Positions 11,856 to 32,400 are shown, counted from the first letter of the stretch. The stretch is DNA of 50,962 nt from Bdellovibrionota bacterium (GCA_044356215.1 JBIKWQ010000014.1:1-50962), one strand, 5' to 3'. Translations and numbers: made by a program. Notes: a model not told the origin generated them from the letters alone.

Positions 11856-12112
11856 TAAGGAAGGCCGGCAAAACCCCTCCCTACTGCGAAAGCGGATCTT
11901 GAGCTGCTCTTCGAGTTTTCGAGATGGGAAAAAATCCTCAATGTATCACAGTGGATACATCTCCGGCCTTCGCTAAAGCTACGGCCGGCGAGGTTTTGTC
12001 GGACCAGACGTAGCCTTGGCGAAGGCTGGTGCGGTTTTTTCCCATCTCGAAAATCGAATATCAACTCAACCTCCACTTTCTCGCTACGGGTAGGTTTTGC
12101 CAGCCTTCCTTA
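11856..12112 (-). mobile_element. MITE-like family A, copy 2 (inverted), TA-flanked, carrying a 68-nt nested hairpin
   Basis: TIR TAAGGAAGGCCGGCAAAACC / GGTTTTGCCAGCCTTCCTTA; body is the reverse complement of 8369-8556 plus an insert at 11963-12030. Confidence 0.9.
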
Positions 12113-12127
12113 GGGAGCGTTGTTCTC

Positions 12128-12784
12128 ATGATTAAAAGATGGATCTCTAAAATAACTGGGAGAGCTTCAAACGTTGCCGCTAAAACGACTAGTGAGATCC
12201 CTGAGAGATTAGACGATCTACTAAGAACCCCCGGGCGCGCGTGCACCGCTACACTTCATTCAGTTGCTCAGTCTCTCTCTAAGGAGGATTTCTTAAATCT
12301 CGTTCACTGTCCTAGCTTGGTAGGGACGGCTGTTAGAGAGGGAGAGCTCGGCAAATCAAGCGCACGGATCGGCGACGCCTTAAATAATCCTACATTTCTC
12401 TTCACCGCCGCTCAGGTGGCATCTTTTGTCGATGGTGTGTCGATCGAGGAGTCTATCTTCCTTTTAAGAAAAGAAGCTAACAGGATATCAAGTCGTCCGA
12501 GCACTCATTTCGCTATCGGCAGAGCTAAGACCAACGATATCAGAATAGTTGATTTCGCCATATCGCGCTCTCACGCGCTAATTGAAAGCACGATAGATGG
12601 ATATAAGATCTCAGACTGCGACTCAAGAAACGGCACAAAGGTAAATGGTCGCACCATAAAACAGAAACCTGAGCTACTTAGCGACCGCGATACGATCACT
12701 CTCGGTCGATACGAGTTTTCGTTTTTACTACCCGAAACTCTCTATGAGAGATTGCGAGTAGGGAATCAGTCAATCTCAAAATAA
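12128..12784 (+). CDS. FHA-domain protein
   Basis: IGRAKTNDI, ISRSHA, D..SRNGTKVNG motifs; start placed at MIKRW, after the MITE. Confidence 0.9.
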   Translation: MIKRWISKITGRASNVAAKTTSEIPERLDDLLRTPGRACTATLHSVAQSLSKEDFLNLVHCPSLVGTAVREGELGKSSARIGDALNNPTFLFTAAQVASFVDGVSIEESIFLLRKEANRISSRPSTHFAIGRAKTNDIRIVDFAISRSHALIESTIDGYKISDCDSRNGTKVNGRTIKQKPELLSDRDTITLGRYEFSFLLPETLYERLRVGNQSISK

Positions 12785-15418: not shown

Positions 15419-16759
15419 ATGGTACCGAACTTGGAAACCCTCTCTAGCTTTCACGACACCCTGGTCCTCGTTGTAGACGATGAAGCCAGCATAAGAAGCT
15501 CCCTAAGTGGGATTTTAAAGGATGAGGGAATATCTGTTATTGAAGCCGCCGATGGGGAGAGCGCGATATCGATGTTAATCGAACGCAATCCAGCACTTGT
15601 ACTACTCGATATCTGGATGCCCGGAATCGACGGATTAGAGACCCTCAAGAAGATAAAAGAGATTAGACCAAACACCCCAGTTGTAATGATTAGTGGTCAC
15701 GCTACCATCTCAACAGCGGTGGCCGCGACCAGACTTGGAGCATCCGACTTCTTAGAGAAGCCTCTAGGTCTTACATCAACGATCGAGGTGGTCCGACGCG
15801 CTCTAGAGATCGCTAAGGAACGCCAGGAGTCAACCGGACCAACATGGGAGAAGATCGAGCCCTCCTCTGTAGGTCCACTACGTCAATCACTCAACTTAAA
15901 ACCGATTGTTTTCGCCAATCAAGTAGCTCGCGGCGCGGCAAGACCTCAAAAGACTATCGCTCACGCGGCGATCCTTTACGGACAGGGATTGCACTCTGGT
16001 AGGAAGAGTGGACTGATACTAGAGCCCCTACCCGCCAACTCAGGAATTCACTTCGTTGGAGTATCAGAGACCACCACAGTACCAGCTCACGTTGATTTCG
16101 TTGAATCAACGGGATTTGCCACAACCGTCCGCTTAGGACACACACAAGCGGGAACAATCGAGCACCTGATGTCGGCACTGTGTGCCTACGGAATCTCAAA
16201 CCTTCTAATTAAATGTAACGGCGAAGTTCCAGTGATGGATGGATCGGCGAACGAGTTCTGTAAGCTTTTTGAACAGGTCGGACTAACAGAGCAGGATGGT
16301 GAGTGGTACGAAATAGCGATTAACGAGACTATTCAAGTTGGTAATGAGAAGGAATGGATCCGCATCGAGCCAGCCGATAGTTTTTCTGTTGATTATACCC
16401 TTAGGTATCCAGCTCCTGTCGGTGAGCAGCACTTTACATTTACTTTCAGCGACCCCGCGTCATTCCGCGCTGAGATCGCCCCATCGAGAACCTTTAGTTT
16501 TGTAAAAGATGTAGGCTATCTTCAGAAGCAGGGGCTAGCTTTAGGTGGCAGGTTCGATAATTTTTTACTGATCGGCACTGAAGGCGCGATTAACGACGCG
16601 TGGCGTTTTCCAAACGAGCCGGTGCGCCACAAGATCCTTGATGCTATTGGTGACCTCTATCTTTTAGGGAGACCGCTAAGAGGAAAAGTCACCGCATGCA
16701 TGACCGGCCACTCTGATAATATCGCGCTGCTTAAGAAAGTTAGAGAGTTGTTGGGGTGA
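15419..16759 (+). CDS. lpxC: Receiver domain-LpxC fusion (UDP-3-O-acyl-GlcNAc deacetylase)
   Basis: REC: VVDD, LDIWMPG, ISGH, EKP. LpxC: QKTI, G.GLHSG, TIEHLMSAL, PVMDGSA, IAPSRTF, HKILDAIGDL. Confidence 0.93.
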   Translation: MVPNLETLSSFHDTLVLVVDDEASIRSSLSGILKDEGISVIEAADGESAISMLIERNPALVLLDIWMPGIDGLETLKKIKEIRPNTPVVMISGHATISTAVAATRLGASDFLEKPLGLTSTIEVVRRALEIAKERQESTGPTWEKIEPSSVGPLRQSLNLKPIVFANQVARGAARPQKTIAHAAILYGQGLHSGRKSGLILEPLPANSGIHFVGVSETTTVPAHVDFVESTGFATTVRLGHTQAGTIEHLMSALCAYGISNLLIKCNGEVPVMDGSANEFCKLFEQVGLTEQDGEWYEIAINETIQVGNEKEWIRIEPADSFSVDYTLRYPAPVGEQHFTFTFSDPASFRAEIAPSRTFSFVKDVGYLQKQGLALGGRFDNFLLIGTEGAINDAWRFPNEPVRHKILDAIGDLYLLGRPLRGKVTACMTGHSDNIALLKKVRELLG

Positions 16760-17946: not shown

Positions 17947-18723
17947 TCACACCACCCTATCCGCCCCACACCCCAGAAACGTCACAGCTTCATGCACAAC
18001 TGCTGTAATCTCCGGCCCCCAGGTACGTGGGTCGTTACGCATCGATGCGATATTCTCTAGCACCAACGATGTCGCGTAAGTCTTTCTAGTCGAGAGTGAC
18101 TCAATACTCACAGTCGATGTCCTCTGATCAAACGAGAATACCGCCGTGTCTAATTTGGCTTGGTTAGCTTGAAGAACGAATGCGTGGCTTAGCGGATCAC
18201 GAATCGATGACACTAACGCTAAAGTTGGCTCTGCGCGTTTAATAAAGCGTTCACTCGCTATCGCTACTCGGGTATAGGTGATAAAGAACGCCCTGAGATC
18301 GGATTCTTCTGACTGCGATAGAGCGCCGATATCACGGCCTTCAAAACGGGCTAGCAGCTCTGTTTTGCATGCGCTCCATAAATTAACACCTCTAAACTCA
18401 ATTCGCGCTAAATCCTCTCTTGGAACTCCTAGGATCCAGCGACTGGCAGTCCTAACATCATCTGGCGTGATCTCACGTGATACGCCACGAGCGGTTAACC
18501 CGCTCCAAGAAATTAACTGCTCTTGTTCACTGATACATCGCGAACATAGAAACGGGCCGCGCTCCTCGCCAACTAATCGGTCGCGACCACAGACTGGGAC
18601 CGCTCCATCGCATAACATCTGGCTAACTTCCGCGCCGTTCTTGGCTAAATAGTTGGCCACTAGATAAAGCAAGCTAGCTTCCTTATGCCCTTCTCCGTAA
18701 GGGGCGTAAACAACTACTTTCAT
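17947..18723 (-). CDS. Hypothetical protein with a Cys cluster (CxxxxxxC...CxxC)
   Basis: Long ORF, third of three overlapping or adjacent co-oriented genes; start placed at MKVVVY. Confidence 0.7.
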   Translation of the reverse strand: MKVVVYAPYGEGHKEASLLYLVANYLAKNGAEVSQMLCDGAVPVCGRDRLVGEERGPFLCSRCISEQEQLISWSGLTARGVSREITPDDVRTASRWILGVPREDLARIEFRGVNLWSACKTELLARFEGRDIGALSQSEESDLRAFFITYTRVAIASERFIKRAEPTLALVSSIRDPLSHAFVLQANQAKLDTAVFSFDQRTSTVSIESLSTRKTYATSLVLENIASMRNDPRTWGPEITAVVHEAVTFLGCGADRVV

Positions 18724-19484
18724 AATGCGCACACCGAAACAGGTCTCTTAGAAACTCGATCTCGTGAGAGGATGTAACACTCAACCTTACTATCTCTGTT
18801 TGGGATTACACCCCAAAACTTCTCCACTACCGCACGCCCCCATAATGTCTCATGAGATTGAGCGCCTTTGCAGAGGCTCTCATCAAGCGCGAATTCGACC
18901 GCCGACTCAGGAGCAACTGTGCCGATATGTAGCGGTGATTCCGCTCCTCTAAGAATATGTCTCAGATCAGGGCGGATTAACTCAGATGTAGAGTTCACTA
19001 TCACAAGCGATGGCACAACAGATTCATCCTCCACCGCTATCCATGACACGATCCCGTTTGACGGTGATACCTCTAAAGTTGGCTCCTCTTCGCTTTTTTC
19101 AGCGTTAACCTTAAACGGTGCCGCGCCGTAAGAGAGCGAAAATTCCGGCGACACCATCTCAATTACAACCCTTGAGTTGCGGAGATCAAGCCTACCCTGA
19201 GGACACTCCAGAGCGACTTCAATGCCGTACATCCCAGAGCCTTCGTTAGCTAAAGATGGAAACGCATCTTCTAACCTTATTCCATCAGGCTGATTTAGAC
19301 GGCCCCCTTCAAGTAGAACCGACCTACGCTCGATGCCTTTGCCAAAGAGGGTCAGATGACACGAAACAGGATAGTGACCAGCGGTGGTTCCTGCGGTTGG
19401 AAAGAAATGCACGCGCGAGCGAATCGCGCTGGTCATTACACAGAACGCCCGGGTTGAGACTGAGTTAGCGATAATTCGATCCAT
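18720..19484 (-). CDS. Hypothetical protein (beta-rich)
   Basis: Long ORF in operon; start uncertain (19484 or 19436). Confidence 0.7.
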   Translation of the reverse strand: MDRIIANSVSTRAFCVMTSAIRSRVHFFPTAGTTAGHYPVSCHLTLFGKGIERRSVLLEGGRLNQPDGIRLEDAFPSLANEGSGMYGIEVALECPQGRLDLRNSRVVIEMVSPEFSLSYGAAPFKVNAEKSEEEPTLEVSPSNGIVSWIAVEDESVVPSLVIVNSTSELIRPDLRHILRGAESPLHIGTVAPESAVEFALDESLCKGAQSHETLWGRAVVEKFWGVIPNRDSKVECYILSRDRVSKRPVSVCAL

Positions 19485-19494
19485 CACTACACCA

Positions 19495-20184
19495 TCACCA
19501 CGCGCAGACATTACGATACAAGATATTACCCTCTGTCTCACCCGGCAATTTTTCGATCATCTGACATACGATCGAAGACTGAGCTCTTGGAGAGATACGA
19601 AGATACCCTTGCGAGATGCCCTTCTGCCAGGACAGGTCATCAAAGGTCGACAACAACTCGTGCTCTAGCGACACAACCCGACAGCCGTAAGGTGGGATCT
19701 GGGTAGTCCACTCAGGTGACCTAGATCCGTAGAGGAGCCGTGTCACGACCTGGCAAACCTCTTCACCTGTATTGAGTAGCACTATTAAGTGCTCCCTCTT
19801 TGCTCCCAGCAAAAGCGGCATAAAAGCCATCTCTCTGTTCTTGATGACTTTTGGCTCAGAGAGAAGATCGACCTGTTTACCCAACTGTAATCTGCAGATC
19901 TGTCGTGTGTTGGCAGGGGTTGTAACAACTAGGTGACCCTGAGTAATACCTCCCTGAGTTTTGAGTCCAGCCATAAAAGGCTCAATCTCAACAATACCCA
20001 CCTCATTCGCTGGGAACTGCACATTAAAGCTCTGCGTCTTTGCGCCATCAACATCAAACAGCTCACAAGCCCCCTCTAGGGCCGCCCCTGAGCTATCCGC
20101 AGTCGCCGAAGAAATTAAAAGGGTCGATGAGAAGAGTGGCGGACCAGCGATCCAAAAATGATTTTTAACTGCGGTGTCAGTCAT
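19495..20184 (-). CDS. Hypothetical protein (beta-rich)
   Basis: 229-aa ORF heading the three-gene operon. Confidence 0.75.
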   Translation of the reverse strand: MTDTAVKNHFWIAGPPLFSSTLLISSATADSSGAALEGACELFDVDGAKTQSFNVQFPANEVGIVEIEPFMAGLKTQGGITQGHLVVTTPANTRQICRLQLGKQVDLLSEPKVIKNREMAFMPLLLGAKREHLIVLLNTGEEVCQVVTRLLYGSRSPEWTTQIPPYGCRVVSLEHELLSTFDDLSWQKGISQGYLRISPRAQSSIVCQMIEKLPGETEGNILYRNVCAW

Positions 20185-20272
20185 CTTTACAAATATCTCT
20201 ACAGCCTCGCTTTCGCGTAGCTAGACTCTACCAGATATCGCGCTACTTTACATCACTTAAACTAAAACTTAA

Positions 20273-20806
20273 CTACCGCAACGAAGCCGCAACTCTCTTC
20301 AAATCAAGCACCTGCGCTGCTGAATACCCGATATTGGAGCTCCAAACTATCCGGCCCTCCTTATCTAAAAGCACCGCATAGGCGCTTTGCGGGCGTTCAT
20401 TCCCTAGCGCCTGAATAATCTTATCGGCATCCTTATAAACAGTGACAACCGAGCCCCAGTCAGATTGGGGGATCCCGCTGCGCATCCCTCCGTCGATAAA
20501 CCCTTGGACCATCTGCGGCACCATCCCGGCGATTGTAGGCACTTCTACTATCTCTGCCTTTATATCAGCCTGAAGCGCCCCAAGAATCCAACGGTCGATG
20601 TCAAACTGGGCCTTCTGGAGATACCCAATTAGTAAAAGCGTGGTCTTTCCGGCGTAGCTTCCGGGTATATTAATCACCTCGCCCTTAAGGCTTGTCCCGA
20701 CTACAGATGGAAAGTTTGAGTTTTGAATATTACTCGGGGCCGCGACTTTAGAGGAGCAGCCAAGCAAAAGGGATATCGACAGAACCGAAGCTAGGATAGT
20801 TTTCAT
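20273..20806 (-). CDS. Lipoprotein with a thioredoxin-like fold, no CxxC
   Basis: Lipobox LLGC; FPSVVG.SL.G and LLDKEGRIVW resemble redoxin-like patterns. Confidence 0.7.
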   Translation of the reverse strand: MKTILASVLSISLLLGCSSKVAAPSNIQNSNFPSVVGTSLKGEVINIPGSYAGKTTLLLIGYLQKAQFDIDRWILGALQADIKAEIVEVPTIAGMVPQMVQGFIDGGMRSGIPQSDWGSVVTVYKDADKIIQALGNERPQSAYAVLLDKEGRIVWSSNIGYSAAQVLDLKRVAASLR

Positions 20807-20899
20807 GAGGCCATACTCTCGCAGGCCAAACGGAATACCGCAAGGGCAGGGCGTTGCAGTATTTTTGTCAAGCTGCTGGGATAATTAGTAGAAAATTTT

Positions 20900-21019
20900 A
20901 CCACAGAGGCCGCAGAGGACACAGAGAATAGCCATTTTATGAGCAATTATGGGGGTTTTCTCTGTGTCCTCTGCGTCCTCTGTGGTGAAAAAGAACTGCG
21001 ACTCCCTACCGCAAGGGAA
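20900..21019. repeat. REP-like family B, copy 2
   Basis: ACCACAGAGG.CGCAGAGGACACAGAGA / TCTCTGTGTCCTCTGCG.CCTCTGTGGT inverted arms. Confidence 0.9.
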
Positions 21020-21029
21020 CGCCACCTCT

Positions 21030-21980
21030 CTAGCGCCCAAGCCCAATCGAAACCCGCGGCTTCTCAGTGATCGCCGGCTGCTCCAATTCACCGAGCACCT
21101 TTGGGCTTCCCGGATTAACCTCTGTCTCAACCGCCTGCTCAGGTGTAGTAGGCAAAAGAGGCTCAGTCTGATGCTTATTCATCATCGATCCGAAACGATT
21201 GGCTCCATCAACCCCCGACTCCTCCATCATCCAACTACGCCTTACAGCGTCGAATGGATTACTCTCGGCGTATCCCAGATGCTTAACAGGGATCCGCTCT
21301 AAAGAGCCAGGCATACTTCCTCCGCGAATTAACTTAGCTAACTCACGGGTCTTGGTCATCTCAACCGATCCGGCAGAAAGGACCAGAGAAGTTGATGGCT
21401 CAATTAATCTAGCGTTTACATAAACTCTTTCAGGAGAGACGACGTAAGTTCCGACAACCACCGCGGCAAGATTCCGGTGACCACGCACCGCTCTCACATC
21501 GCGCGAGAGCGCGAACTCTCCAGAGGTGTCGAGAAATTGCAGAGCATCAGCGTGCCTTAGCTCAACTACATCAAACCCTTTCATAGCCAACTCACTCATA
21601 AGCTGCTCGCCTACCATGCGGCCAAAAGTTGAGCTTGCATAAAGGTCGTCTATGTTCACAAATGTAGTTACCCCGATCGGGCCCGGCGCCGCGCTGCGGT
21701 AGTATCGATCTATCTGAGCCGCCAAGAGCGCAGTCTTAAACCTTCCCGGGCCGTAATTGTCGTATTCCTTATTGGGGATCGGCCAATATTCAGGCATATC
21801 GTGATAGCGCGGGCTACAGCCTGCCAAGAGGACTCCACCTGCAAGCACAGTTATTCCTAGCGAATGGCACGCTCTTTGAACCGTATGCTTGAACGATTTA
21901 GTGAATGTACACGCCTTAAAGCTGGATATAAGCTGGCGGTAAATAGAATCCCAGGGAGTAATCATAGTAACCTCATGCAA
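21030..21980 (-). CDS. FlgO-family outer-membrane lipoprotein
   Basis: Lipobox LLAGC; VTTFVNIDDL..SSTFGR..EQLMSEL..GF.VVELR, GEFALSR, VVVGTY, VNARLI. Confidence 0.8.
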   Translation of the reverse strand: MHEVTMITPWDSIYRQLISSFKACTFTKSFKHTVQRACHSLGITVLAGGVLLAGCSPRYHDMPEYWPIPNKEYDNYGPGRFKTALLAAQIDRYYRSAAPGPIGVTTFVNIDDLYASSTFGRMVGEQLMSELAMKGFDVVELRHADALQFLDTSGEFALSRDVRAVRGHRNLAAVVVGTYVVSPERVYVNARLIEPSTSLVLSAGSVEMTKTRELAKLIRGGSMPGSLERIPVKHLGYAESNPFDAVRRSWMMEESGVDGANRFGSMMNKHQTEPLLPTTPEQAVETEVNPGSPKVLGELEQPAITEKPRVSIGLGR

Positions 21981-24198: not shown

Positions 24199-25230
24199 AT
24201 GAAGCGCTTAATACTTAAAAAAATACTCCCCTGGCTTATTACGTTCGGAGCCCTCTATCTAGCTTTTAGAGGGGTAGAATGGGATCTGCTGATCGGTCAC
24301 ATTAGCAATGCAAAGCCGCTCTACATACTGGTCGCGGTCGCTCTAACAGTGGCGTCTTATTGGCTGCGCGCGCTTCGTTGGCCACTCTTATTTCCGAAGG
24401 TATCACTTCCACTCTTGTCTTCGTGGAAGGTTTTAGTCCTCGGATTTTTCATGAATAACATCCTTCCAGCTCGCGCTGGAGAGTTGGTGCGTGCTCACCT
24501 AGGAGCTAAGGTGTTGGGCGTTGCTAGAACCTTAGTATTGGCGACTATAGCCAGCGAGAGACTTGCTGACGGCCTAACAATCAGCTTGTTCTTCGTTCTA
24601 ATCGTCGGATTTATCGGTCGAGGGAGCCTCGATCCAGAGATCTCCCAGAATCTACTTTACGTTGCGTATCTCTTCGCGGCGGTAGCGATTGGAGTGATTG
24701 CTGTGCTTCTGTGCCGCGATCTAATCATAAAAAATCTTGAGCGAGTCGCTTCCAGGATAGGGAAAAGCTCATCTTCATACGCGCTATCCAGAGTTCAGAT
24801 CTTTATTGATGGGCTTAGCCCGCTTAGCAAACCCAAACGCGCGGTTAAGATCGCCGTCTGGTCGTTTGTCATTTGGGGCGTTGAACTCGTTGCTTTCGCG
24901 GCCATTTCCAAGGCTTTCGGTGGTCAGATATTTCTCTCTGGAACTGTTCTATTTTTAGTCGCAGTTAATTTTAGCTCGCTAATACCAGCGGCTCCAGGTG
25001 GTTTCGGTGTGATTGAGCTGATTGCTAAGAGCGTCTTGGTATCTGCCGGTGTCGCGACCCCGGAGTTGGCTCTCAGTATGGTTCTTACTCAGCATATAAT
25101 TCAGTACGCGGTAATCGGAATTCCAGGGGCGTTCCTGCTATCTACTTTAAGAACTCAGTTAGCTGATATGTCAGATTCTGCGAAGCAGGAGCCTGTATCC
25201 GAAGCGTCGATCTCCGCTTCAATTTCTTAG
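24199..25230 (+). CDS. Lysylphosphatidylglycerol synthase TM / UPF0104 flippase-like protein
   Basis: RALRW, NNILPARAGE, ERLAD, PAAPGGFG. Confidence 0.88.
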   Translation: MKRLILKKILPWLITFGALYLAFRGVEWDLLIGHISNAKPLYILVAVALTVASYWLRALRWPLLFPKVSLPLLSSWKVLVLGFFMNNILPARAGELVRAHLGAKVLGVARTLVLATIASERLADGLTISLFFVLIVGFIGRGSLDPEISQNLLYVAYLFAAVAIGVIAVLLCRDLIIKNLERVASRIGKSSSSYALSRVQIFIDGLSPLSKPKRAVKIAVWSFVIWGVELVAFAAISKAFGGQIFLSGTVLFLVAVNFSSLIPAAPGGFGVIELIAKSVLVSAGVATPELALSMVLTQHIIQYAVIGIPGAFLLSTLRTQLADMSDSAKQEPVSEASISASIS

Positions 25231-25926
25231 CTTCAGGATCTCAGCCCCATTAAGATATGCCTCTCGATCCGAAGCTTTAACGCTTCTTAATTGATCGATC
25301 ATTCCTGACATGCGCTGGGCATCACTCTTAATCGCGGCGACGGCGCCAACAAATTTGGGATCACTCTTCGGTAGCTGTTCAACTAGGAAGCAATTTAGCA
25401 AGATCGCTGAAAGTGGCTGCCCAAGCTGATGCGCCGCCGTTCCAGCTAGTTGTCCTACCGCGATCTGACGCTCCTGCTCTACTAACCTATCTTGCGCCCG
25501 TCGCAGCTCCTCATTAGCTACTCTAAGGTCGTGATGAAGGTCGCGAATCCGGAGCAAGGCGCTGACTCGCGCTTGAAGCTCCTCGTAATTAAACGGCTTA
25601 GTGATGTAATCATCAACACCCTCGGATAAAGCTGTAACCTTGTCCCTTACCGTGTCTCGTTCTGTTAACATCAAAACGGGTAAGAAATCTCCGACGTGCC
25701 GACTTTTAATCGACTTGCAGATCTCAAAACCGCCAAGGTCGGGCATTCCGTAGTCCAGCACCACTAGATCGAAATTTCCCCGCTCAGACTCCTCAATTGC
25801 CTCGCGACCACTCTGCACTAACACCGGGCTGTGACCCAAAACAGAGATTACACTCGCTACGATGATCCGCGATTCCGGATCGACGTCTACGATCAATATG
25901 CGTCTTTTGCGGGGCTCGGCGCTCAT
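25219..25926 (-). CDS. Response regulator: receiver, coiled coil and HisKA-like H-box, no ATPase domain
   Basis: LDYGMP, DDYITKPF, AAHQLGQPL; the protein ends about 55 aa after the His. Confidence 0.85.
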   Translation of the reverse strand: MSAEPRKRRILIVDVDPESRIIVASVISVLGHSPVLVQSGREAIEESERGNFDLVVLDYGMPDLGGFEICKSIKSRHVGDFLPVLMLTERDTVRDKVTALSEGVDDYITKPFNYEELQARVSALLRIRDLHHDLRVANEELRRAQDRLVEQERQIAVGQLAGTAAHQLGQPLSAILLNCFLVEQLPKSDPKFVGAVAAIKSDAQRMSGMIDQLRSVKASDREAYLNGAEILKLRN

Positions 25927-26010: not shown

Positions 26011-26331
26011 CTAGCAGCTCCTAATCGTGACCTCAGAGAGTATCTCGTCGCGTAAAACAGGGTCTGTTTCCAGCAGCTCTGCGAGGAAAGCTTTCATATC
26101 AGCTTGCTCGGCAGGATCATCCTCCAAGCGACCTACAACCTGCGAGAGCAGAACCTCAATCGCCTGGTCCTCTGAATTAAAAACCTGGCACTGTACTGCA
26201 CTTTCTGGACGCTGAGCCGGAGCTGCCTGCGCGCCTCTTTCTGCGGATCTAGCTGGAGAGTTAGTAAGACGCCCCTTATACTTGACTCCTGGCTTCTCTA
26301 ACGCCTTCAAATTCGTCTTGCTCTTAACCAT
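26011..26331 (-). CDS. Hypothetical protein at the end of the T3SS-like operon
   Basis: GGAGAGGAG RBS; basic N-terminus and acidic helical C-terminus. Confidence 0.75.
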   Translation of the reverse strand: MVKSKTNLKALEKPGVKYKGRLTNSPARSAERGAQAAPAQRPESAVQCQVFNSEDQAIEVLLSQVVGRLEDDPAEQADMKAFLAELLETDPVLRDEILSEVTIRSC

Positions 26332-26409
26332 TTTGCTCTCCTCTCCAACCGATACCCACAGAATTTACCACAGATTGAACTACTAAACCCAAAAAAATGC
26401 CGCTCTCGC

Positions 26410-27054
26410 CTAATATTTTAGACCTCCGACTTTTGCATCTTGGTTTGAGCCAAAACCGGCTTTGGAAGCCACAGGCTGAACACTCCCCCCTCTTTCATCC
26501 ACGGAACCAAGCCCCATCAAGTTGCCTCTTACCACTGGGTGCTTAGCTATTAAAATCGCTTTCTCTAATTCGTGAATCACCTCTATTTTAGGCCGACCCA
26601 GATCATACTCAAGTGCCACCCGATTATTTCTTAACGATGCGTTATCTGGCAGCGCCTCCAACGCCTCATTATAAAGCTTCTTAGCGAGCTCCCGATTGCC
26701 GATAATATCCTGTAATAACGCAAGGTTAGCCAGAGCTTGATCGTAAGTACGGTCCATCTCATAGGCGCGGTTAAAAAGCTCTTCTGCCCTTTGAAACTCC
26801 CCCTGCAGCAACGCCACGCACCCCTGACCGTCAATAGCGGCTGCCAACCCCGCTAGCTCTTCTGCCGTTGAAAATGACGCCCTGGCCTGGTCGAATTTAC
26901 CCCCTCGAATCTGCGAGGTGCCAAGGTCAACCAGCCGCTGGGCCTCTTTATACCTAGCCACGGGGATATCGGCGGACCTAAAACACCCCGTAAGCACCTG
27001 AATGCACAGACTTAACCCTATAAATACGATGAACTTTGCCATAGTATTCCTCAT
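26410..27054 (-). CDS. TPR lipoprotein (pilotin/TadD-like)
   Basis: Lipobox VLTGC; TPR patterns (ALANLALL...A...Y..AL...PDN...NN). Confidence 0.8.
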   Translation of the reverse strand: MRNTMAKFIVFIGLSLCIQVLTGCFRSADIPVARYKEAQRLVDLGTSQIRGGKFDQARASFSTAEELAGLAAAIDGQGCVALLQGEFQRAEELFNRAYEMDRTYDQALANLALLQDIIGNRELAKKLYNEALEALPDNASLRNNRVALEYDLGRPKIEVIHELEKAILIAKHPVVRGNLMGLGSVDERGGSVQPVASKAGFGSNQDAKVGGLKY

Positions 27055-27110
27055 GCTAAATAACTACTCTTTAGGTTATCGAGACCTCGAGTTACAAAGT
27101 TGCTTAGTCG

Positions 27111-29027
27111 TCACACAATCCCTTCTAATAAAGCCCGCCTCTGCTCGTCATCTTTTAGCTCTATCTGACCACACGGCTGGAAATCGAATCTTGGAGCGAT
27201 CTCCTCATGAGCTATAACGGGGACATCCGACCACCTCGTCCGAACGACATCACGTAAGTACGCGCGTGATCGCTTCGATGTCACCAGAGCTATATCTTTA
27301 TTCTCCAGAAGTCGCTCTACCTGATCGCAGATCAGGTCAACTAATTCGCCTGACACGAGAGAGCCACTGTCTTCAGATTTCCCTAGCGCGAGATCGACAA
27401 CTGGCTCAACGACCGCCCCTTTGATGACCCTTCCCCGCGCTACAGACGCGCTTACGACAGGGGCAAGCGCCGCGCGCACCTCCGCTAAGATCTGTCGCTC
27501 TGTTAATTTATTCCCCTGCTCAGCTATCGTCTGCATCACGATATCAAGGTGGCGAGTGGTAATCCCCTCTCGAAGTAACGCTCGCAAAAGAGTGGTAATC
27601 TGAGTCAGGCTCGCTACCGATGGCACGACACCATTAACTAAATCTGGAATCTCGCGCTCCACATAATCTAATGCTCGACGCGTAGTCCCGTCATCGATCA
27701 GCTCAACTCTGTAGAGATCGATCATCCGTCGAGTTTCTATCTCAACCTCGTCCCACAACTCAGACGAAACACCCTTCTCACACCGCACGACCTCCATTCC
27801 ACGAACTAGCACTCTAAAAGCACCTTCTGGTTCGCTCCACAAACCGATCCCCGGGCGCTGCAGGACTAATCCCCACCGTGTAAATGCGTACTCACGCAAA
27901 CTCTCCATCACCTTTGAAACCTGTTCGAGGGGCGGTATCAACGCCACTAAATCCGGCGCCAATTCAATCTGAATCGATTGAGCTAATTTCGGTTCAAATG
28001 GGGCTAAGCTTACTGACGAGGCCTCTGCCTTAATAGGCTCAGGTAAAAATAAAGAAGCTATCAGAGCTATACTTACAGAGAACAGGACCAGATGTGGCAT
28101 CCCTGGCAAACATCCCAGAATAAACGCCGCCGCCCCCACAAAGGTTCTCGCGATCTTAAACTGTCCGATCTGACCAAGGAGATCCCCCGCTAGTGTCGAC
28201 GATTCATCTACTTGTACCCGAGTTACTACAAGTCCAGCCGCGACCGAATTCAGTAGCGAAGGAATCTGCGAGAGCAATCCATCACCGATTGTCAGCACCG
28301 TATATCTGCGAACCGCTACTTCGAGATCTAATTGGTGCACAAGCACGCCAACCGCTAGGCCACCAATTATATTCACCGCGGTAATTACCAACCCCGCTAT
28401 GGCGTCCCCCTTAACGAACTTCATCGCGCCATCTAGAGCCCCGTAAAATCGTGACTCCATCTGAACATCCGCTCTCTTTTTACGAGCTGCCTCTGGATCA
28501 AGGGCACCGCTGCGAATCTCCGCGTCGATCGCCATCTGTTTTCCCGGAAGAGCATCCAAGGTAAAACGTGCGGACACCTCCGCGACTCTCTCCGCCCCCT
28601 TCGCCACTACGATAAACTGAATCAAACTTATCAGTAGGAACAGAACGAAACCAACTACCACGCTGCCTTGAATAACAATTGAGCCAAACGCCTCTACTGC
28701 CTGACCAGCGTGTCCAGAACTGAGAACCGCTCGTGTGGTCGCGATGTTAAGCGAGAGCCGCCACAGCGTCGCCATCAGAAGCAACGACGGCAACGTCGCG
28801 ACTTTCAGTGGATCTCGGATATGAAGAGCGCCGATGACAAGCAGCAAGGCGAAAAGCAGATTAGAGCAGAGGAAGACATCTAAGACCGCACCTGGAAGTG
28901 GAACTATCATGCATCCGACGATCAGCATCAGACCTATCGGTACGATCAGCTCCTTTCCGTTCAGCAAGCTCATTAAGGATATCTCCGTTGGGGAAACCGG
29001 GGCGCCCGGACTTATCAACCCGAGCAC
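27111..29027 (-). CDS. sctV: FHIPEP-family export gate (SctV/FlhA-like)
   Basis: KGAERVAEVSARFTLDALPGKQMAIDAE, FYGALDGAMKFVKGDAIAG, LTIGDGL..QIP; shortened cytoplasmic domain. Confidence 0.93.
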   Translation of the reverse strand: MLGLISPGAPVSPTEISLMSLLNGKELIVPIGLMLIVGCMIVPLPGAVLDVFLCSNLLFALLLVIGALHIRDPLKVATLPSLLLMATLWRLSLNIATTRAVLSSGHAGQAVEAFGSIVIQGSVVVGFVLFLLISLIQFIVVAKGAERVAEVSARFTLDALPGKQMAIDAEIRSGALDPEAARKKRADVQMESRFYGALDGAMKFVKGDAIAGLVITAVNIIGGLAVGVLVHQLDLEVAVRRYTVLTIGDGLLSQIPSLLNSVAAGLVVTRVQVDESSTLAGDLLGQIGQFKIARTFVGAAAFILGCLPGMPHLVLFSVSIALIASLFLPEPIKAEASSVSLAPFEPKLAQSIQIELAPDLVALIPPLEQVSKVMESLREYAFTRWGLVLQRPGIGLWSEPEGAFRVLVRGMEVVRCEKGVSSELWDEVEIETRRMIDLYRVELIDDGTTRRALDYVEREIPDLVNGVVPSVASLTQITTLLRALLREGITTRHLDIVMQTIAEQGNKLTERQILAEVRAALAPVVSASVARGRVIKGAVVEPVVDLALGKSEDSGSLVSGELVDLICDQVERLLENKDIALVTSKRSRAYLRDVVRTRWSDVPVIAHEEIAPRFDFQPCGQIELKDDEQRRALLEGIV

Positions 29028-29047
29028 CCATTTCTCACGTTATATGA

Positions 29048-29353
29048 CTATCCAACGCGCATATTTCTAATCGGCGCCATCTCAGTCTCATGTTGGGATT
29101 TAGATACGTTTGAGGCCATCGAAATGATCTGCATCTCACGCTGAATCTGAATCTGCATATTAAGAAGCTGAGTTAACTCAGCGCTGTTACTACCCAGCAT
29201 TGATCCCACGGCGTCCATGCCTGTATCAACGACTGCCTCTCCCCACTGCGCCAAGGAACTGCGAGGCTCTGGTAATGCTCTGGCGAGTACGGATCCTCCA
29301 ATATTAAGGCCAAGCCCAGTTAACATCGGTGTAATAGATATTGGTGAAGACAT
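29048..29353 (-). CDS. Small T3SS filament/rod-like protein (SctF/SctI/HrpA-like)
   Basis: 101 aa, GGAGG RBS; C-terminal helical hairpin LL.MQ..IQRE....SMASNVSKSQHETEMAPIRNMR resembling T3SS needle/rod/pilin ends. Confidence 0.6.
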   Translation of the reverse strand: MSSPISITPMLTGLGLNIGGSVLARALPEPRSSLAQWGEAVVDTGMDAVGSMLGSNSAELTQLLNMQIQIQREMQIISMASNVSKSQHETEMAPIRNMRVG

Positions 29354-29378
29354 CTTGATTCCTCCAAATAAATAGAAA

Positions 29379-29406
29379 TTATCGGGACACTGTAAGTAGA
29401 AGTTGC
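29379..29406 (-). promoter_or_regulatory. Sigma28-like internal promoter for the filament-like gene
   Basis: GCAAC-N15-CCCGATAA on the minus strand (7/8 match to GCCGATAA). Confidence 0.6.
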
Positions 29407-29434
29407 TGGATAGAAAGTCTCCTACGGAGACCAA

Positions 29435-29462
29435 ACAAAACATCGCCCAAGCGAGGTTTTGT
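29435..29462. repeat. Hairpin family D (ACAAAACATCGC-N4-GCGAGGTTTTGT), copy 1
   Basis: Identical arms recur at 45849-45876; only the loop differs. Confidence 0.85.
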
Positions 29463-29471
29463 CTCGCTTCT

Positions 29472-30290
29472 CTAATAGATCTCCAGAATCCTCACAGACA
29501 AACGATTATCTATCTGGTTGATCTCCCCGGTAGCTAAGGTTGTGGCGCCAATTCGTAGCGCGCACTTAAAAGGCATCTGTGCATCCAGCTCTATTCGACT
29601 CCCCGAGCGCAGTGCAGCTAGCTGAGAGAGAGAAAGCTCTATCTCTCCCAGATTTAGTTGAACCATAACTGAGTCACTCATTGAATTCATCTCGTTTGAC
29701 TGTTCCATAGATATTACTCCTTCGCTTGAAAATAAAAATCTAGCGGCTATTTGCTGCTCCTGGCACAAGACTACAAGCTCCGGCAGATCAACGGCCGCCC
29801 CTACATGGATCGATCTAGACCAAGAGATAAGAGCGTAAAGAGGCAGCCTGACCATTCTATAAATTTCCGGTTGCGTGATATTCAATAAAGATTGGGCCCC
29901 ATCATTCAAAGCTATAAATATCTCACTGTTATCGGACATTAACCGGTAAGAGCTCCATGAAGACGGGTAATTATCAACCAAGTGAAGCCGCAGATCGTCG
30001 CTACTATTTTCATCAAGGAAACACGCGATGGATTTGGCGTTGCGCACAAAGGCCAGCTTCTCGTTAAGTAATGAGCATTGGCCGTTTGAGTGTTTTATAT
30101 TTAGCGCAAAGCCCCACGTTTCCTGGCCGAACAACATCCACTTCGACGTAAAATTACCAACCGGATCATCCACTCGATCCACTCGTTGAACTGGTGCTGA
30201 GCCACCTATCGTCTCGATCAATACCTCAGCCAACCGAACCGCATTCGCAGCCTGAGAAAGCTCGTGCTTATTGGAAACGACAAGCATCAT
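29472..30290 (-). CDS. SctQ/FliM-FliN-like sorting-platform protein (C-terminal SpoA domain)
   Basis: VQLNLGEIELSLSQL..LRSGSRIEL..ATGEI..ID.RLSVRILE; ATGA overlap with the upstream gene. Confidence 0.8.
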   Translation of the reverse strand: MMLVVSNKHELSQAANAVRLAEVLIETIGGSAPVQRVDRVDDPVGNFTSKWMLFGQETWGFALNIKHSNGQCSLLNEKLAFVRNAKSIACFLDENSSDDLRLHLVDNYPSSWSSYRLMSDNSEIFIALNDGAQSLLNITQPEIYRMVRLPLYALISWSRSIHVGAAVDLPELVVLCQEQQIAARFLFSSEGVISMEQSNEMNSMSDSVMVQLNLGEIELSLSQLAALRSGSRIELDAQMPFKCALRIGATTLATGEINQIDNRLSVRILEIY

Positions 30291-30670
30291 GCCCCCAGGT
30301 CCTTGCACTCGTCGTCACTCATCCTAGCGATAGCCAGGCACACTGTCGAAGCCTCTAGCGGTCCGAGCTCCTCGAGCCGCTTAGTTTCCCGAATTACGCG
30401 CTCATCCAATATCGGCTCAAGCCTCAATCGAGTGGGATCGATACCTTCTAAAAAACAAGCAGCGGTGAGCCAGTGCGAGCCCGCGTATTCATCCGCGCGA
30501 TGATCAAGCTTGCCTAAGTCCTCATCCTTGGGCGGCAGATTCAACACCGAACTTCGCGAGCTCTCCCACTCTTCACTGGTAGGGACAATCCTAGCCCGGG
30601 TTAAAGACAGCTGAATACGGGTTATGAGTGCTCCTACGAATCCTTTATATGGCGCCATTTCAGACCTCAT
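30287..30670 (-). CDS. Hypothetical protein in the SctK position
   Basis: Lies between sctJ and sctQ, with a 1-nt gap on one side and an ATGA overlap on the other. Confidence 0.6.
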   Translation of the reverse strand: MRSEMAPYKGFVGALITRIQLSLTRARIVPTSEEWESSRSSVLNLPPKDEDLGKLDHRADEYAGSHWLTAACFLEGIDPTRLRLEPILDERVIRETKRLEELGPLEASTVCLAIARMSDDECKDLGA

Positions 30671-30671
30671 T

Positions 30672-31553
30672 CTAATCCTCTGACACCATTCCCGCTGGAA
30701 GCGAGAACACAACCCTCTTGTGTCGGAACCTCAAGATCCAGAAGCTAAATACACAAACGACTAAAGCGGCCAGGGCTGCAATCTCTGTCGTATACCGGCC
30801 GAGCGTTGGATCAATACTAGTTAAAGGCACGGACACGGCGGCGCTGCTCACTGACGGCTGCGCCACTATTACAGGTTGCCCCAACACAGGCTCGGCCGAA
30901 GACCCCGCCGCCTGACTTCTAAGTACTGAAACCTTACCTGCTGGAATCCCAGCGGCTCCACTGACAAGGGCCGCGATCTCATCATCTTTAGCGAACAGGG
31001 ATGAATCTGTGACTAGTAAAACCGAACCTGAACCTAGATTCTCTTTGCGAGTTCCAAAGAGCGGATCGCTCTCTGGTAGATTCAAATGCACACGTGCCTC
31101 TAACACGCCACGCATCGCCGCTAAACTCTCCTCTATAGAGAGGGCGACCGCGCGCTCATACCTGAATCTTTGTTCTTCTCGGCTTGGCACGAAGCCACTT
31201 TTATTCCCAGCTCCCGCGCCTGTTTGTCGCGGCGAAAGCACCCTGGTTGAATCCAGGAAATTCAATGATGGTACTACCGAATCCTTAGAAACAGAGATCG
31301 ACCACCGACCGTCTGATTGAATCACTTTTTTGGCTCGGAGATTCCCTGAACTGAGACGACTGAGCACCCGGTTAGCATCCTGCTCAGTAAGATCGTGCAG
31401 TATCGTCTCATCGCACCCGGTCAAGAAAGTCGCTAGAAAAATTGCTAGTAGTACACCCTTCGCCCTGTTGACCTCATTTAACTTTTTACTATGCCGCCAG
31501 GTCGGGCGCCACTTTCTGAATTTTCTGCCGTAACATATCAATCGCTTTATCAT
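30672..31553 (-). CDS. sctJ: SctJ/YscJ inner-membrane ring lipoprotein
   Basis: Lipobox LTGC, L.EQDAN, FVPSREEQRFRY, GVLEARVHL, LVSGAAGI, C-terminal TM; start codon uncertain. Confidence 0.88.
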   Translation of the reverse strand: MIKRLICYGRKFRKWRPTWRHSKKLNEVNRAKGVLLAIFLATFLTGCDETILHDLTEQDANRVLSRLSSGNLRAKKVIQSDGRWSISVSKDSVVPSLNFLDSTRVLSPRQTGAGAGNKSGFVPSREEQRFRYERAVALSIEESLAAMRGVLEARVHLNLPESDPLFGTRKENLGSGSVLLVTDSSLFAKDDEIAALVSGAAGIPAGKVSVLRSQAAGSSAEPVLGQPVIVAQPSVSSAAVSVPLTSIDPTLGRYTTEIAALAALVVCVFSFWILRFRHKRVVFSLPAGMVSED

Positions 31554-32319
31554 GCAACCTCGATACCCAAGACTTTGATAGACCAGCGAACTGCTCCGCG
31601 ACCTCAACAAACTTGCGGTCATGGAAATAATGCTGCTCTATAATTATTCGCTCTTTCTCGGGTAAAGTTGCCACTAATTCTCTTATTCTCTCGGAGCGCC
31701 GCTTTTTTTGAAGATTACTCTCTGGGTCAAATCTCTCTCTCTCGGCGATCCGCGCCTCCTCTTCCCCGTCGTACCCGAGCAGTTTAAAAGCGACCGCGAC
31801 TCTCTCTAGGTACTCCAGACCTTCCTTCGCCACTTTATCCTTGGTATCAGAACCAGTTCCTCGCGCGCCCCCTCTTCTAGTTAACTGATCTTCACGTAGC
31901 ATCTGCGCGGCCTCTAATGCGCGCAGTCGTCGATATGCTCGCGGGCTAAGCTCACAGGTTGACCGGACATAATCGATCACCGCTCCCCGTATTCTCAAGA
32001 AGGCAAAAGTTTTAAATTTCTCACCTCTCTCTGGATCGAAACGCCCGGCGGCTTCCACAAGTCCAAATAAACCCGCGGAGAGAAACTCCTCTCGCATCGC
32101 TCCCGGAAGCTGCATTGTTCGCATCAGCCCGTAAACGACGGTACTAACATAATCGTAGTACTCCTCTACAAGCGCATCGCGATCACCGGGAGCGGTTACT
32201 GATATATTGTCTGGCTTACTGCTTGGGCAGCCGACATCATCGCCTGACGCTACACTTCTTCCACTTACCTTTGACATCAAAGCCCTCCCCACGATTATGC
32301 TTAAAATTGGGACCGACAT
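31489..32319 (-). CDS. FliA/WhiG-family (sigma28-like) RNA polymerase sigma factor
   Basis: GLVEAAGRFDPERG.KFKTFA..RIRGAVID; LPEKER.II..Y; SKSWVSRLH. Confidence 0.92.
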   Translation of the reverse strand: MSVPILSIIVGRALMSKVSGRSVASGDDVGCPSSKPDNISVTAPGDRDALVEEYYDYVSTVVYGLMRTMQLPGAMREEFLSAGLFGLVEAAGRFDPERGEKFKTFAFLRIRGAVIDYVRSTCELSPRAYRRLRALEAAQMLREDQLTRRGGARGTGSDTKDKVAKEGLEYLERVAVAFKLLGYDGEEEARIAERERFDPESNLQKKRRSERIRELVATLPEKERIIIEQHYFHDRKFVEVAEQFAGLSKSWVSRLHDKAIDMLRQKIQKVAPDLAA

Positions 32320-32372: not shown

Positions 32373-32400
32373 CAATCGATAGATCGTTAAAAAAAGTTGC
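32373..32400 (-). promoter_or_regulatory. Sigma28-like (possibly autoregulatory) promoter upstream of the sigma gene
   Basis: GCAAC-N15-ATCGATTG; same GCAACTT -35 and spacing as at 29379-29406. Confidence 0.45.

Follow-up and report, generated by a model that had tools for sequence, protein, structure and literature searches.

What is the function of a gene row which encodes some type III secretion system (T3SS) parts, is headed by a sigma factor gene of its own and lacks many of the canonical components? This question is raised by a contig of a Bdellovibrionota bacterium (GCA_044356215.1, JBIKWQ010000014.1:1-50962; 50,962 nucleotides (nt)), the whole of which is called the window here. On its minus strand, from position 32319 down to 26011, eight open reading frames (ORFs) encode a sigma-28 paralog, an SctJ-type ring lipoprotein, a small protein, an SctQ-like protein, a protein of about 100 amino acids (aa), an export-gate protein of the FHIPEP family (SctV-S), a tetratricopeptide repeat (TPR) lipoprotein and a protein of 106 aa. 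Judged from the sequence data, these ORFs likely constitute the central operon of a working non-flagellar type III export apparatus which is specific to an uncultured, Bdellovibrio-like lineage and is termed the S system. It is a conserved lineage-specific T3SS variant with genes at three loci, no secretin and unusual forms of SctU and SctV, and it probably has its own sigma/anti-sigma pair. Throughout the text, G000 denotes the source genome (3.24 Mb, 131 contigs, 96.5% complete), other G numbers genomes of relatives, C numbers contigs of G000 and L numbers individual loci. Comparisons were based on 91 species genomes from 21 families of the order and on 124 genomes of the phylum-level group. 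The ORFs of the window were identified by Pfam and NCBIfam scans, and curated family cut-offs were used.

Gene content of the operon

Neighbouring ORFs of the row either overlapped or were separated by 20-78 nt. ORFs and family scans agreed with an initial annotation, made from the DNA sequence of the window, which had described a minus-strand run, tightly coupled in its first half, from a sigma-28 gene to a last hypothetical gene. The same annotation had noted that SctR, SctS, SctT, SctU, SctN, SctL, a secretin and hook or rod proteins were missing. Indeed, none of these genes was found in the window by genome-wide family searches and by a Pfam scan of 39 further ORFs. Matches to FliP/SctR, FlhB/SctU, FliI/SctN and secretins were located on other contigs only in the genome-wide searches, and a FlgO-family protein (21030-21980) was the sole flagellar-named match among the 39 ORFs.

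The ring protein SctJ (30672-31622, minus strand like all genes of the operon) matched YscJ_FliF with 54.3 bits and TIGR02544 with 87.1 bits (cut-off 162). A cysteine closing the N-terminal hydrophobic stretch, together with the motif following it, is shared by the window protein and all of the 19 orthologs inspected, and the protein ends in a membrane helix. Family scores and the conserved lipobox both speak for the SctJ-type ring that had been proposed, and not for FliF. As a long ORF, sctJ extends into the sigma ORF; the true start of SctJ is probably located further in. The small ORF following sctJ (30287-30712) had been annotated by its position as a counterpart of SctK. This assignment was abandoned: no likeness to SctK was detectable and no family matched, while the product measures only 59-75 aa in most relatives (113-141 aa in the genus) with a mean column identity of 23%. 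SctQ (29472-30308) carries a C-terminal FliMN_C/SpoA domain (PF01052, 37.5 bits), which scored above the cut-off here and in four of six orthologs tested.

The next ORF (29048-29443) comprises 131 aa. Its translation most likely starts at its own residue 31, position 29353, so that the likely gene extends from 29048 to 29353. In alignments of this roughly 100-aa protein, the N-terminus is disordered and contains a PEP motif, and the helix at the C-terminus is strongly conserved. Its structural model is a helical hairpin (helices 33-52 and 57-100) of low confidence, with a predicted local distance difference test value (pLDDT) of 60.7. Atlas searches produced T3SS_needle_F and HrpA (Hrp-pilin) clusters as the sole named look-alikes (0.84-0.87). 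The protein may be a needle or rod subunit of the SctF type, or an early export substrate resembling SctX.

SctV-S (27111-29027) gave 483 bits with FHIPEP, 445.3 bits with the SctV model TIGR01399 (cut-off 692) and 435.3 bits with the FlhA model TIGR01398 (cut-off 772). Because its orthologs measure 617-623 aa, its start was placed near 28973, where it probably lies. The TPR protein (26410-27054; TPR family match), separated from sctV by a gap of 56 nt, contains an N-terminal lipobox cysteine, found also in 19 of 19 orthologs, and weakly resembles TPR lipoproteins of the PilW/Tgl/GltE type. The first gene and the last gene (26011-26331) are described below together with the promoter motif.

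Dispersed export genes

Genome-wide family searches revealed three sets of type III genes in G000. The parts missing from the window were found at two other loci, in line with the suggestion that the system might be split: sctR, sctS, sctT and sctU on contig C99, and sctL and sctN on contig C9. The cluster on C99 consists of an SctI-like gene (97 aa; PF17001 below threshold in five of eight family members), a gene for a protein of about 300 aa with one FliK-C hint, a possible ruler, then sctR, sctS, sctT and an sctU gene for the membrane domain only. The C99 matches for SctR, S, T and the N-terminal half of SctU were all below the curated equivalog cut-offs, and every Sct model match was far below in the S loci tested.

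The sctU gene is split in an unusual way (C99:10413-14703). A 260-aa membrane part stops just before the position expected for the NPTH autocleavage site, an 88-aa protein begins just after it, and a gene for a 1042-aa hybrid histidine kinase is located between both. The 88-aa protein matched TIGR00789 flhB_rel, the model of stand-alone FlhB C-terminal domain proteins (YlqH type), with 48.8 bits. The core export parts are thus SctV-S in the window, and SctR, S, T, the membrane half of SctU and the FlhB_C gene on C99. A C99-type cluster was present in 8/8 distant genomes read. The kinase separated the SctU halves in six of these as well as in G000, and G076 has both halves side by side without an intervening kinase. 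The region just upstream of sctI-RSTU (C99:17749-27388) encodes a tyrosine recombinase as well as CRISPR-Cas proteins of type I-F (Cas1f, Csy4, Csy3, Csy2).

On contig C9, sctL and sctN form a lone pair (C9:34831-36701). SctN scored 457 bits with TIGR01026, above the cut-off, and SctL 44 bits with the FliH/SctL Pfam model. Walker A, Walker B and the catalytic glutamate of SctN were read as intact, and SctN was present in 5/5 loci read. A genome-wide search with the secretin model PF00263 detected no T3SS secretin SctC in G000; its only two matches were GspD of a type II cluster (gspC-H) and PilQ. The ORF scans, none of which was aimed at tip or translocon proteins, showed no family of either kind.

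The genome G025, a closed contig of 2.28 Mb, provided information on the coherence of the three loci. It contains neither SctV-S nor a C99-type SctR nor any SctN, and keeps a second T3SS-like cluster (see below). This co-absence, together with the promoter motif shared by the loci, would tie the three loci into one system. SctT was also considered as a phyletic marker and discarded, as it evolves too fast (24-30% identity across the order).

Conservation within the order and beyond

The gene order sigma, sctJ, small ORF, sctQ, ~100-aa gene, sctV-S, TPR gene and ~105-aa gene recurred in all 20 loci read from distant families of the order. By phmmer, SctV was recognised in 20 of these, the TPR protein and SctJ in 19 each, and the sigma factor and the ~100-aa protein in 18 each. 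In 18 of the 20 loci the sigma gene adjoins sctJ; in G028 it is located 5.3 kb upstream. Using a cut-off of E<=1e-95, SctV-S matches were obtained in 82/91 genomes of the order and in 105/124 of the phylum-level group. Most of the nine order genomes with no match are incomplete, and some matches outside the order span only the first ~500 residues and may be other paralogs. The operon itself was also seen in other orders of this small phylum-level group, which agrees with the lineage-specific system initially proposed.

Homologs of SctV-S formed more than 120 clusters with 56-90% identity and mostly 617-623 aa. When 1.84 billion representatives were searched, the clusters (50% identity) that matched SctV-S over the full length in a single stretch of 590-660 aa numbered well over 100, and 24/24 sampled family representatives stayed below both the SctV and the FlhA cut-off. 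Compared with the three nearest species, the nonsynonymous divergence (dN) was 0.14 for SctV-S and 0.16-0.18 for the ~100-aa protein. SctQ evolves fast (dN 0.8-0.9 against the nearest species). Since the synonymous divergence (dS) was saturated, dN/dS was not computable for most pairs.

These data bear on the possibility that the operon is merely what has remained of a formerly complete, now decaying system. Many canonical parts are missing from it, SctQ and the small ORF change rapidly, and a few orthologs contain one in-frame stop (G013, G011), as decay would predict. However, intact ORFs in the same order were found across 21 families, SctV-S and the ~100-aa protein combine low dN with saturated dS, the FHIPEP core motifs of SctV-S are invariant, and the promoters are conserved. 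Moreover, the missing parts are located elsewhere, with the SctN motifs intact as read. The initial annotation had named absence of sctRSTU and sctN together with relaxed dN/dS as the sign of such decay; these genes exist, and dN is low at saturated dS. Decay is therefore strongly disfavoured, and we regard it as extremely improbable.

SctV-S, a separate clade of the export gate

Alignments showed that SctV-S lacks one block of ~45-52 residues in the cytoplasmic domain, corresponding to residues 416-468 of Escherichia albertii EscV and 445-489 of Vibrio FlhA. A second SctV protein of G000, SctV2, has this block. Going by the domain limits of Salmonella FlhA, the missing block is presumably subdomain SD2. 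SD2 is part of the docking site for chaperone-cargo complexes.

Two unrooted trees were calculated, one for 83 FHIPEP proteins with the LG+G4 model and one for 46 FHIPEP proteins as a quick tree with a site-mixture model. Reference sequences came from loci found by a contig scan with the SctV-S alignment, 40 of 78 of which were labelled by NCBIfam. The scan returned FHIPEP proteins of all kinds, with two members of the S clade (L019, L021) among the matches listed. The known families were represented by flagellar, injectisome and myxobacterial sequences. The S clade and the V2 clade each obtained a support of 100. A branch with support 97-99 separates both of them from three other groups, namely the FlhA clade, the clade of injectisome SctV, and the SctV of myxobacteria, with Archangium, Polyangiaceae and delta metagenome-assembled genome (MAG) sequences. 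The FlhA clade (support 99-100) contains the order's own FlhA next to a Bdellovibrionaceae FlhA, and S was placed outside of it by both models, as it was for the injectisome clade (support 96-99). SctV-S is thus not nested among the flagellar proteins, which had been the critical point of the proposed SctV phylogeny against flagellar and myxobacterial sequences. On the evidence of the sequences it represents a separate SctV clade outside crown FlhA, injectisome SctV and myxobacterial SctV.

The deep placement of the S clade involves long branches. In the approximately unbiased (AU) test under LG+G4, a tree joining S with all FlhA cost 6.1 log-likelihood units and was not rejected (p-AU 0.41). 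A position between flagella and injectisomes, as had been assumed from the myxobacterial systems, was consequently not resolved by the trees. In databases, homologs of SctV-S are named either "flagellar biosynthesis component FlhA" or "type III secretion protein V", and the first of these names is misleading.

Short SctV proteins of 652-660 aa, just below the SctV cut-off, were observed in Novosphingobium, Sphingomonas, Roseateles and a proteobacterial MAG (L045, L057, L059, L071). In the tree they are nested within the injectisome clade, and short SctV forms therefore arose more than once.

Independence from flagellar genes

G000 possesses a flagellar gene set of its own, with fliM/N, fliP, flhB, flhA and fliA on C71 and C123, and fliF and fliI on C29. 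The operon was also kept in three genomes of 92-97% completeness (G008, G009, G010) in which the searches for FlhA, FliI, hook and rod genes gave no match; flagellar FliP was not found in G009 or G010 either (G008 was not searched for FliP). G009 and G010 contain the C99-type cluster and SctV2 as well. The S system is thus independent of flagellar genes.

We considered nevertheless an accessory or second flagellar-type export apparatus, which would serve the flagellum or a flagellum-derived structure. Its FlhA score nearly equals the SctV score (435 vs 445 bits), regulator and promoter are both of the sigma-28 type, a tree uniting S and FlhA was not rejected, and sctL-sctN adjoin an FlgE-like gene in G000 and G081. 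Against these points stand the ring protein, an SctJ-type lipoprotein and not FliF, the full flagellar set elsewhere (FlhA, FliP, FlhB, FliF, FliI, FliM/N, FliA) and the persistence of the operon in the three genomes just mentioned. The FlgE-like gene was examined as a system part and rejected: flagellated genomes have two hook paralogs, to which it belongs, and because it is absent from G008, G009 and G010, it is not part of the S system. A flagellar role is therefore very unlikely.

A second set of T3SS-like genes

The third type III gene set of G000 is distributed over two contigs. C111:49-7008 encodes an FHA/YscD-like protein, SctJ2, two small proteins, SctQ2, SctR2, SctS2, two membrane proteins, one of them with a weak FlhB hint, and a TPR chaperone of the SctY/LcrH type. 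This type of cluster was found in 5/5 loci read (L193, L199-L202). SctV2 (701 aa) is encoded by the last-but-one gene of a Tad/Flp pilus operon (C131:7866-22215) comprising CpaE, Flp, CpaB, TadA, two TadB/C-like genes and SctV2, followed by a gene for a HEAT-repeat protein of about 800 aa. It was located within a Tad operon in 11/11 distant loci read (L150-L159, L203).

Do both sets form one composite machine? G000 has a single non-flagellar SctL-SctN pair for the two of them, most of the order's genomes have retained both, and S and V2 share one side of the well supported branch in the unrooted trees. Yet each set has its own SctJ, SctQ, SctR, SctS and SctV, plus candidates for SctT and SctU, and the S operon never adjoined the Tad operon (20 and 11 loci read). 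Furthermore, G025 keeps the C111-type cluster and SctV2 in its Tad operon without the S operon, the C99-type SctR or SctN. A composite machine is hence quite unlikely, and by their gene sequences and distribution the C111 cluster and SctV2 constitute a system separate from the S operon.

A candidate sigma/anti-sigma pair and a shared promoter

The first gene of the operon (31489-32319) encodes a sigma factor with regions 2 and 4 (Sigma70_r2 and Sigma70_r4), for which FliA/WhiG was the best family (TIGR02479, 108.2 bits; cut-off 189.6). The true FliA of G000 is encoded beside flhA (C123:2441-3109) and reached 243.8 bits. The operon accordingly contains a distinct paralog, consistent with the idea of a sigma factor of its own. 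FlgM candidates of G000 are likewise located on other contigs (C117, C68, C45).

The 106-aa product of the last gene showed a basic, disordered N-terminus and conserved C-terminal helices in the alignment. Using alignments for both partners, a complex of this protein with the sigma factor was predicted with a score of 0.89 (runs 0.82, 0.89 and 0.89), while the best control reached 0.37. The runs agreed in at least 94% of contacts, and the pLDDT of the partner was at least 67. In the calibration of the complex tool, the mark was reached by 116/157 solved complexes and by 2/215 mismatched pairs. The predicted interface connects residues 61-101 of the 106-aa protein with sigma regions 2, 3 and 4. 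FlgM holds sigma-28 through these same three regions. Given this modelled likeness of the binding mode, the 106-aa protein is probably an FlgM-like anti-sigma factor. The last gene, "hypothetical" in the initial annotation and without a family match, has this predicted function from the complex model.

Five genes are preceded by a motif G[CA]AACTT-N14/15-CGA[TA]: those for the sigma factor and the TPR protein in the window, the gene which begins the C99 cluster, the 88-aa gene, and sctL. In the window it occurs on the minus strand as GCAACTT-N15-CGAT at 32375-32400, 56 nt upstream of the sigma gene, and as GCAACTT-N15-CGATAA at 27078-27103, in the gap between sctV and the TPR gene. The motif, presumably one base off the sigma-28 consensus in the -35 box with the same spacing, recurred at orthologous places in many relatives. 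G000 contains 39 intergenic, correctly oriented sites, compared to 4 for the reversed pattern and 3 and 2 for two wrong spacings.

The motif also precedes about 34 genes outside the system in G000. Among them are ComEC, ComM, SSB, RadC and a pilin, a competence-like set, and two kinases, in addition to several mobile-element (transposase, integrase) and toxin-antitoxin genes, a pesticin/lysozyme-like gene and a DUF1521 gene. Examples of such sites are C78:40491, C84:27849, C34:39018, C126:20091, C68:22454, C37:35822 and C55:25311. A T3SS effector of rhizobia, NopE, contains the DUF1521 domain. The genes listed are no more than leads to cargo or regulon members. Flagellin promoters were heterogeneous, with one of six carrying a TAAAG-N-GCCGAAT site. 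Motif counts were also considered for identifying the sigma factor that recognises the promoter and were discarded as uninformative, the pattern being mixed across G025, G029, G049, G024 and G014.

Assembly and possible function

We infer that the parts encoded at the three loci assemble into one machine in the inner membrane. SctJ would form the inner-membrane ring, SctQ the cytoplasmic ring and SctV-S the gate, joined by a needle-like or early-substrate protein and a periplasmic TPR lipoprotein. The partners would be an SctI-like rod protein, a possible ruler, SctRST and the split SctU from C99, and SctL-SctN from C9, with the same promoter type at all three loci. Export may proceed into the periplasm or into a short axial structure. 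The sigma-28 paralog from the first gene and the FlgM-like protein from the last gene would constitute the regulatory pair: once the apparatus is complete, the anti-sigma factor would be exported through it and thereby free the sigma factor, as does FlgM export in flagella, and the freed sigma factor would raise expression of the system's own loci and of further genes. Anti-sigma export, a secreted cargo and any role in predation are proposals of the same kind.

We are aware of the fact that a number of observations weigh against this interpretation. The assembly of G000 is fragmented, with the contig number and completeness given above, so the absences reported here are not absolute. The partnership of the three loci is drawn from one informative genome (G025) and the shared motif, not from physical linkage. 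G008 (94% complete) and G009 (97% complete) keep the operon, and no SctN or FliI was found in them at E<=1e-60; the ATPase is therefore not always retained. For SctJ, no SctD partner was found in the S set, and neither SctK nor SctO was recognised; the FHA/YscD_cpl proteins go with the C111 set. PDB profiles matched the ~100-aa protein at an E value of about 1 only, namely AscX and a 43-residue chain taken as a needle fragment. Foldseek gave no match, hhalign against the SctI-like family a probability of 2.6%, and Pfam no match in 7/7 members. The needle-like reading is a candidate lead without significant support. Of the "filament-like" ORF of the initial annotation, the needle and Hrp-pilin leads are retained, and significant profile, Pfam, Foldseek or hhalign support is lacking.

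Further points concern the regulatory pair. The score of the sigma/106-aa complex may reflect likeness to solved sigma-28/FlgM structures, the FlgM Pfam model found nothing in the window at E<=1, and the 106-aa protein had no named atlas match. The motif was enriched in G025, a genome without the operon (33 vs 10 control sites), and not enriched in G024 or G014, both with the operon; the true FliA could therefore read it. Enrichment was also seen in G029 and G049. Finally, a true FliA above the family cut-off is kept in G008, G009 and G010, for which reason we propose that FliA may have a non-flagellar regulon in this lineage.

A different weighting of the same data would make the apparatus mainly a signalling device, the chief cargo of the gate being its own anti-sigma factor. 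An outside cue, transmitted by the kinase and receiver proteins, would open export and turn on a sigma-28-type regulon, and effector delivery would be secondary. This would fit with the position of the sigma gene at the start and of the predicted anti-sigma gene at the end of the operon, and with the motif at the system's own loci, suggesting positive feedback, and at the ~34 other genes including the competence-like set. The hybrid kinase inside the split sctU, the receiver-HisKA gene beside the operon and the absence from SctV-S of the block which we place at SD2, part of the cargo-docking site, point in the same direction. A pure switch would, however, have no need for the rod-like, needle-like and possible ruler genes that are kept, the motif counts of G025, G024 and G014 do not support a tie between the motif and the operon's sigma factor, and the export of the anti-sigma factor is itself conjecture. 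We therefore consider it unlikely that signalling is the main task.

A more far-reaching proposal, possible but doubtful, combines several of these elements. According to it, the lineage harbours two independent secretin-less type III descendants. S would be a self-regulating export switch, and a killing apparatus of Tad pilus plus T3SS would have evolved a second time, independently of Myxococcus. Contact or kinase signalling would open a gate that lacks the usual cargo-docking subdomain and works with a pre-cleaved SctU. Once the FlgM-like protein had been exported, the private sigma factor would activate a regulon made up of the machine's own genes, genes for DNA uptake and those of candidate proteins with a lytic or secreted character (pesticin/lysozyme-like, DUF1521).

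Returning to the non-flagellar export apparatus that we favour, the S system raises the question of what role a type III basal body has without an outer-membrane channel, and it allows an FlgM-type secretion checkpoint to be probed outside flagella. It also presents unusual solutions, with three loci under one promoter type and an SctU gene split where other systems autocleave.

Neighbouring genes in the window

Downstream of the operon, a minus-strand gene (25219-25926) encodes a protein with a response-regulator receiver and a HisKA domain and without an ATPase domain (Pfam). As such a gene was found within ~2-5 kb of the operon in 8/20 relatives' loci, it is a frequent neighbour; its product is a possible regulator of the S system and a candidate by neighbourhood only.

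In a single ORF at 15419-16759 (plus strand), the receiver domain of a response regulator is fused to LpxC (UDP-3-O-acyl-GlcNAc deacetylase), present as a full domain, an unusual route to phosphorelay control over lipid A synthesis. The FlgO-family protein mentioned above heads a minus-strand row of five genes (17947-21980), four of which had no Pfam family at E<=1e-8. This row was considered as a possible outer-membrane part and rejected, being near the operon in only 2/20 relatives' loci (G049, G028). Three of its genes adjoin the second T3SS-like cluster in G003. The plus-strand ORF 12029-12784 encodes a 251-aa protein with a C-terminal FHA/YscD-cytoplasmic-like domain; its domain order is unlike that of SctD, and G000 contains many FHA proteins of this type.

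The S system among known type III systems

The 88-aa gene of C99 resembles the stand-alone FlhB C-terminal proteins of TIGR00789 in carrying the part which follows the autocleavage site. Unlike these, it pairs with an SctU that has lost this domain.

Another short FHIPEP protein is the orphan short FlhA of chlamydiae, whose gene adjoins a sigma-28 gene. Its model PRK05910 (584 positions) gave an uninterrupted alignment with SctV-S over the whole length, whereas the alignments of the SctV and FlhA models were each split in two. The chlamydial models nevertheless stayed far below their cut-offs for S (PRK05910, 246.8 vs 670; PRK05911, 64.9 vs 378), and none of 24 sampled SctV-S representatives reached the PRK05910 cut-off, the best scoring 271.5.

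With the flagellar FliA/FlgM checkpoint the S system shares a factor of the sigma-28 family, a predicted wrap-around anti-sigma partner, an FHIPEP gate and a SpoA protein, and its promoter form AAACTT-N-CCGATAA lies very close to the consensus of sigma-28. Unlike the flagellum, it is not accompanied by genes for FliF, FliG, hook, rod or filament, it persists in genomes in which no flagellar genes were found, and its sigma factor is a paralog, with true FliA and FlgM candidates elsewhere.

Injectisomes (Ysc, Inv-Mxi-Spa, Esc, Hrc, Rhc and chlamydial Cds) and S have in common the SctJ lipoprotein ring, SctQ with SpoA, SctRSTUV, SctL, SctN and an SctI-like protein, and the SctV model scored slightly above the FlhA model for SctV-S. 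In contrast to injectisomes, S has no SctC secretin, and no SctD, SctK, SctW, tip or translocon was recognised. Its Sct matches lie far below the curated cut-offs, and SctV-S is found outside the injectisome clade.

No description of a non-flagellar T3SS in Bdellovibrionota was found in the literature searched, most subscription journals being outside reach. The described system closest in kind is the needleless T3SS* of Myxococcus xanthus (mxan_2434-2464), which lacks secretin, needle and translocon and acts together with the Kil Tad-like pilus in prey lysis (PMC12075869, PMC12428579; Thiery 2022 as cited there). According to a 2025 review, co-occurrence of Tad and T3SS is limited to one myxobacterial suborder. 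Like the T3SS*, S, which is known from its genes alone, comprises a non-flagellar basal body, a sorting platform and an export apparatus, with no secretin and no translocon recognised, and both come from lineages known for bacterial predators. In a myxobacterial locus (L031), sctU is likewise followed by a FlhB_C-like gene that stands alone, and a TPR gene is also present, located before sctV.

Clear differences are visible as well. SctV-S does not group with myxobacterial SctV and is ~50 residues shorter, the S genes are distributed over three loci instead of one cluster, and SctU is split. Moreover, S has its own pair of sigma and predicted anti-sigma factor and candidate rod-like and needle-like genes. 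Because of these candidates, the label "needleless" is uncertain for S. The Tad link in G000 belongs to SctV2 and not to the S operon. If the lineage is predatory, S and its Tad-linked sister would indicate that Myxococcus is not alone in pairing a pilus and a type III core. With more than 100 metagenome clusters at 50% identity, the S system stands as a further, deeply separate and widespread lineage beside flagella, the injectisome families and the myxobacterial needleless systems.

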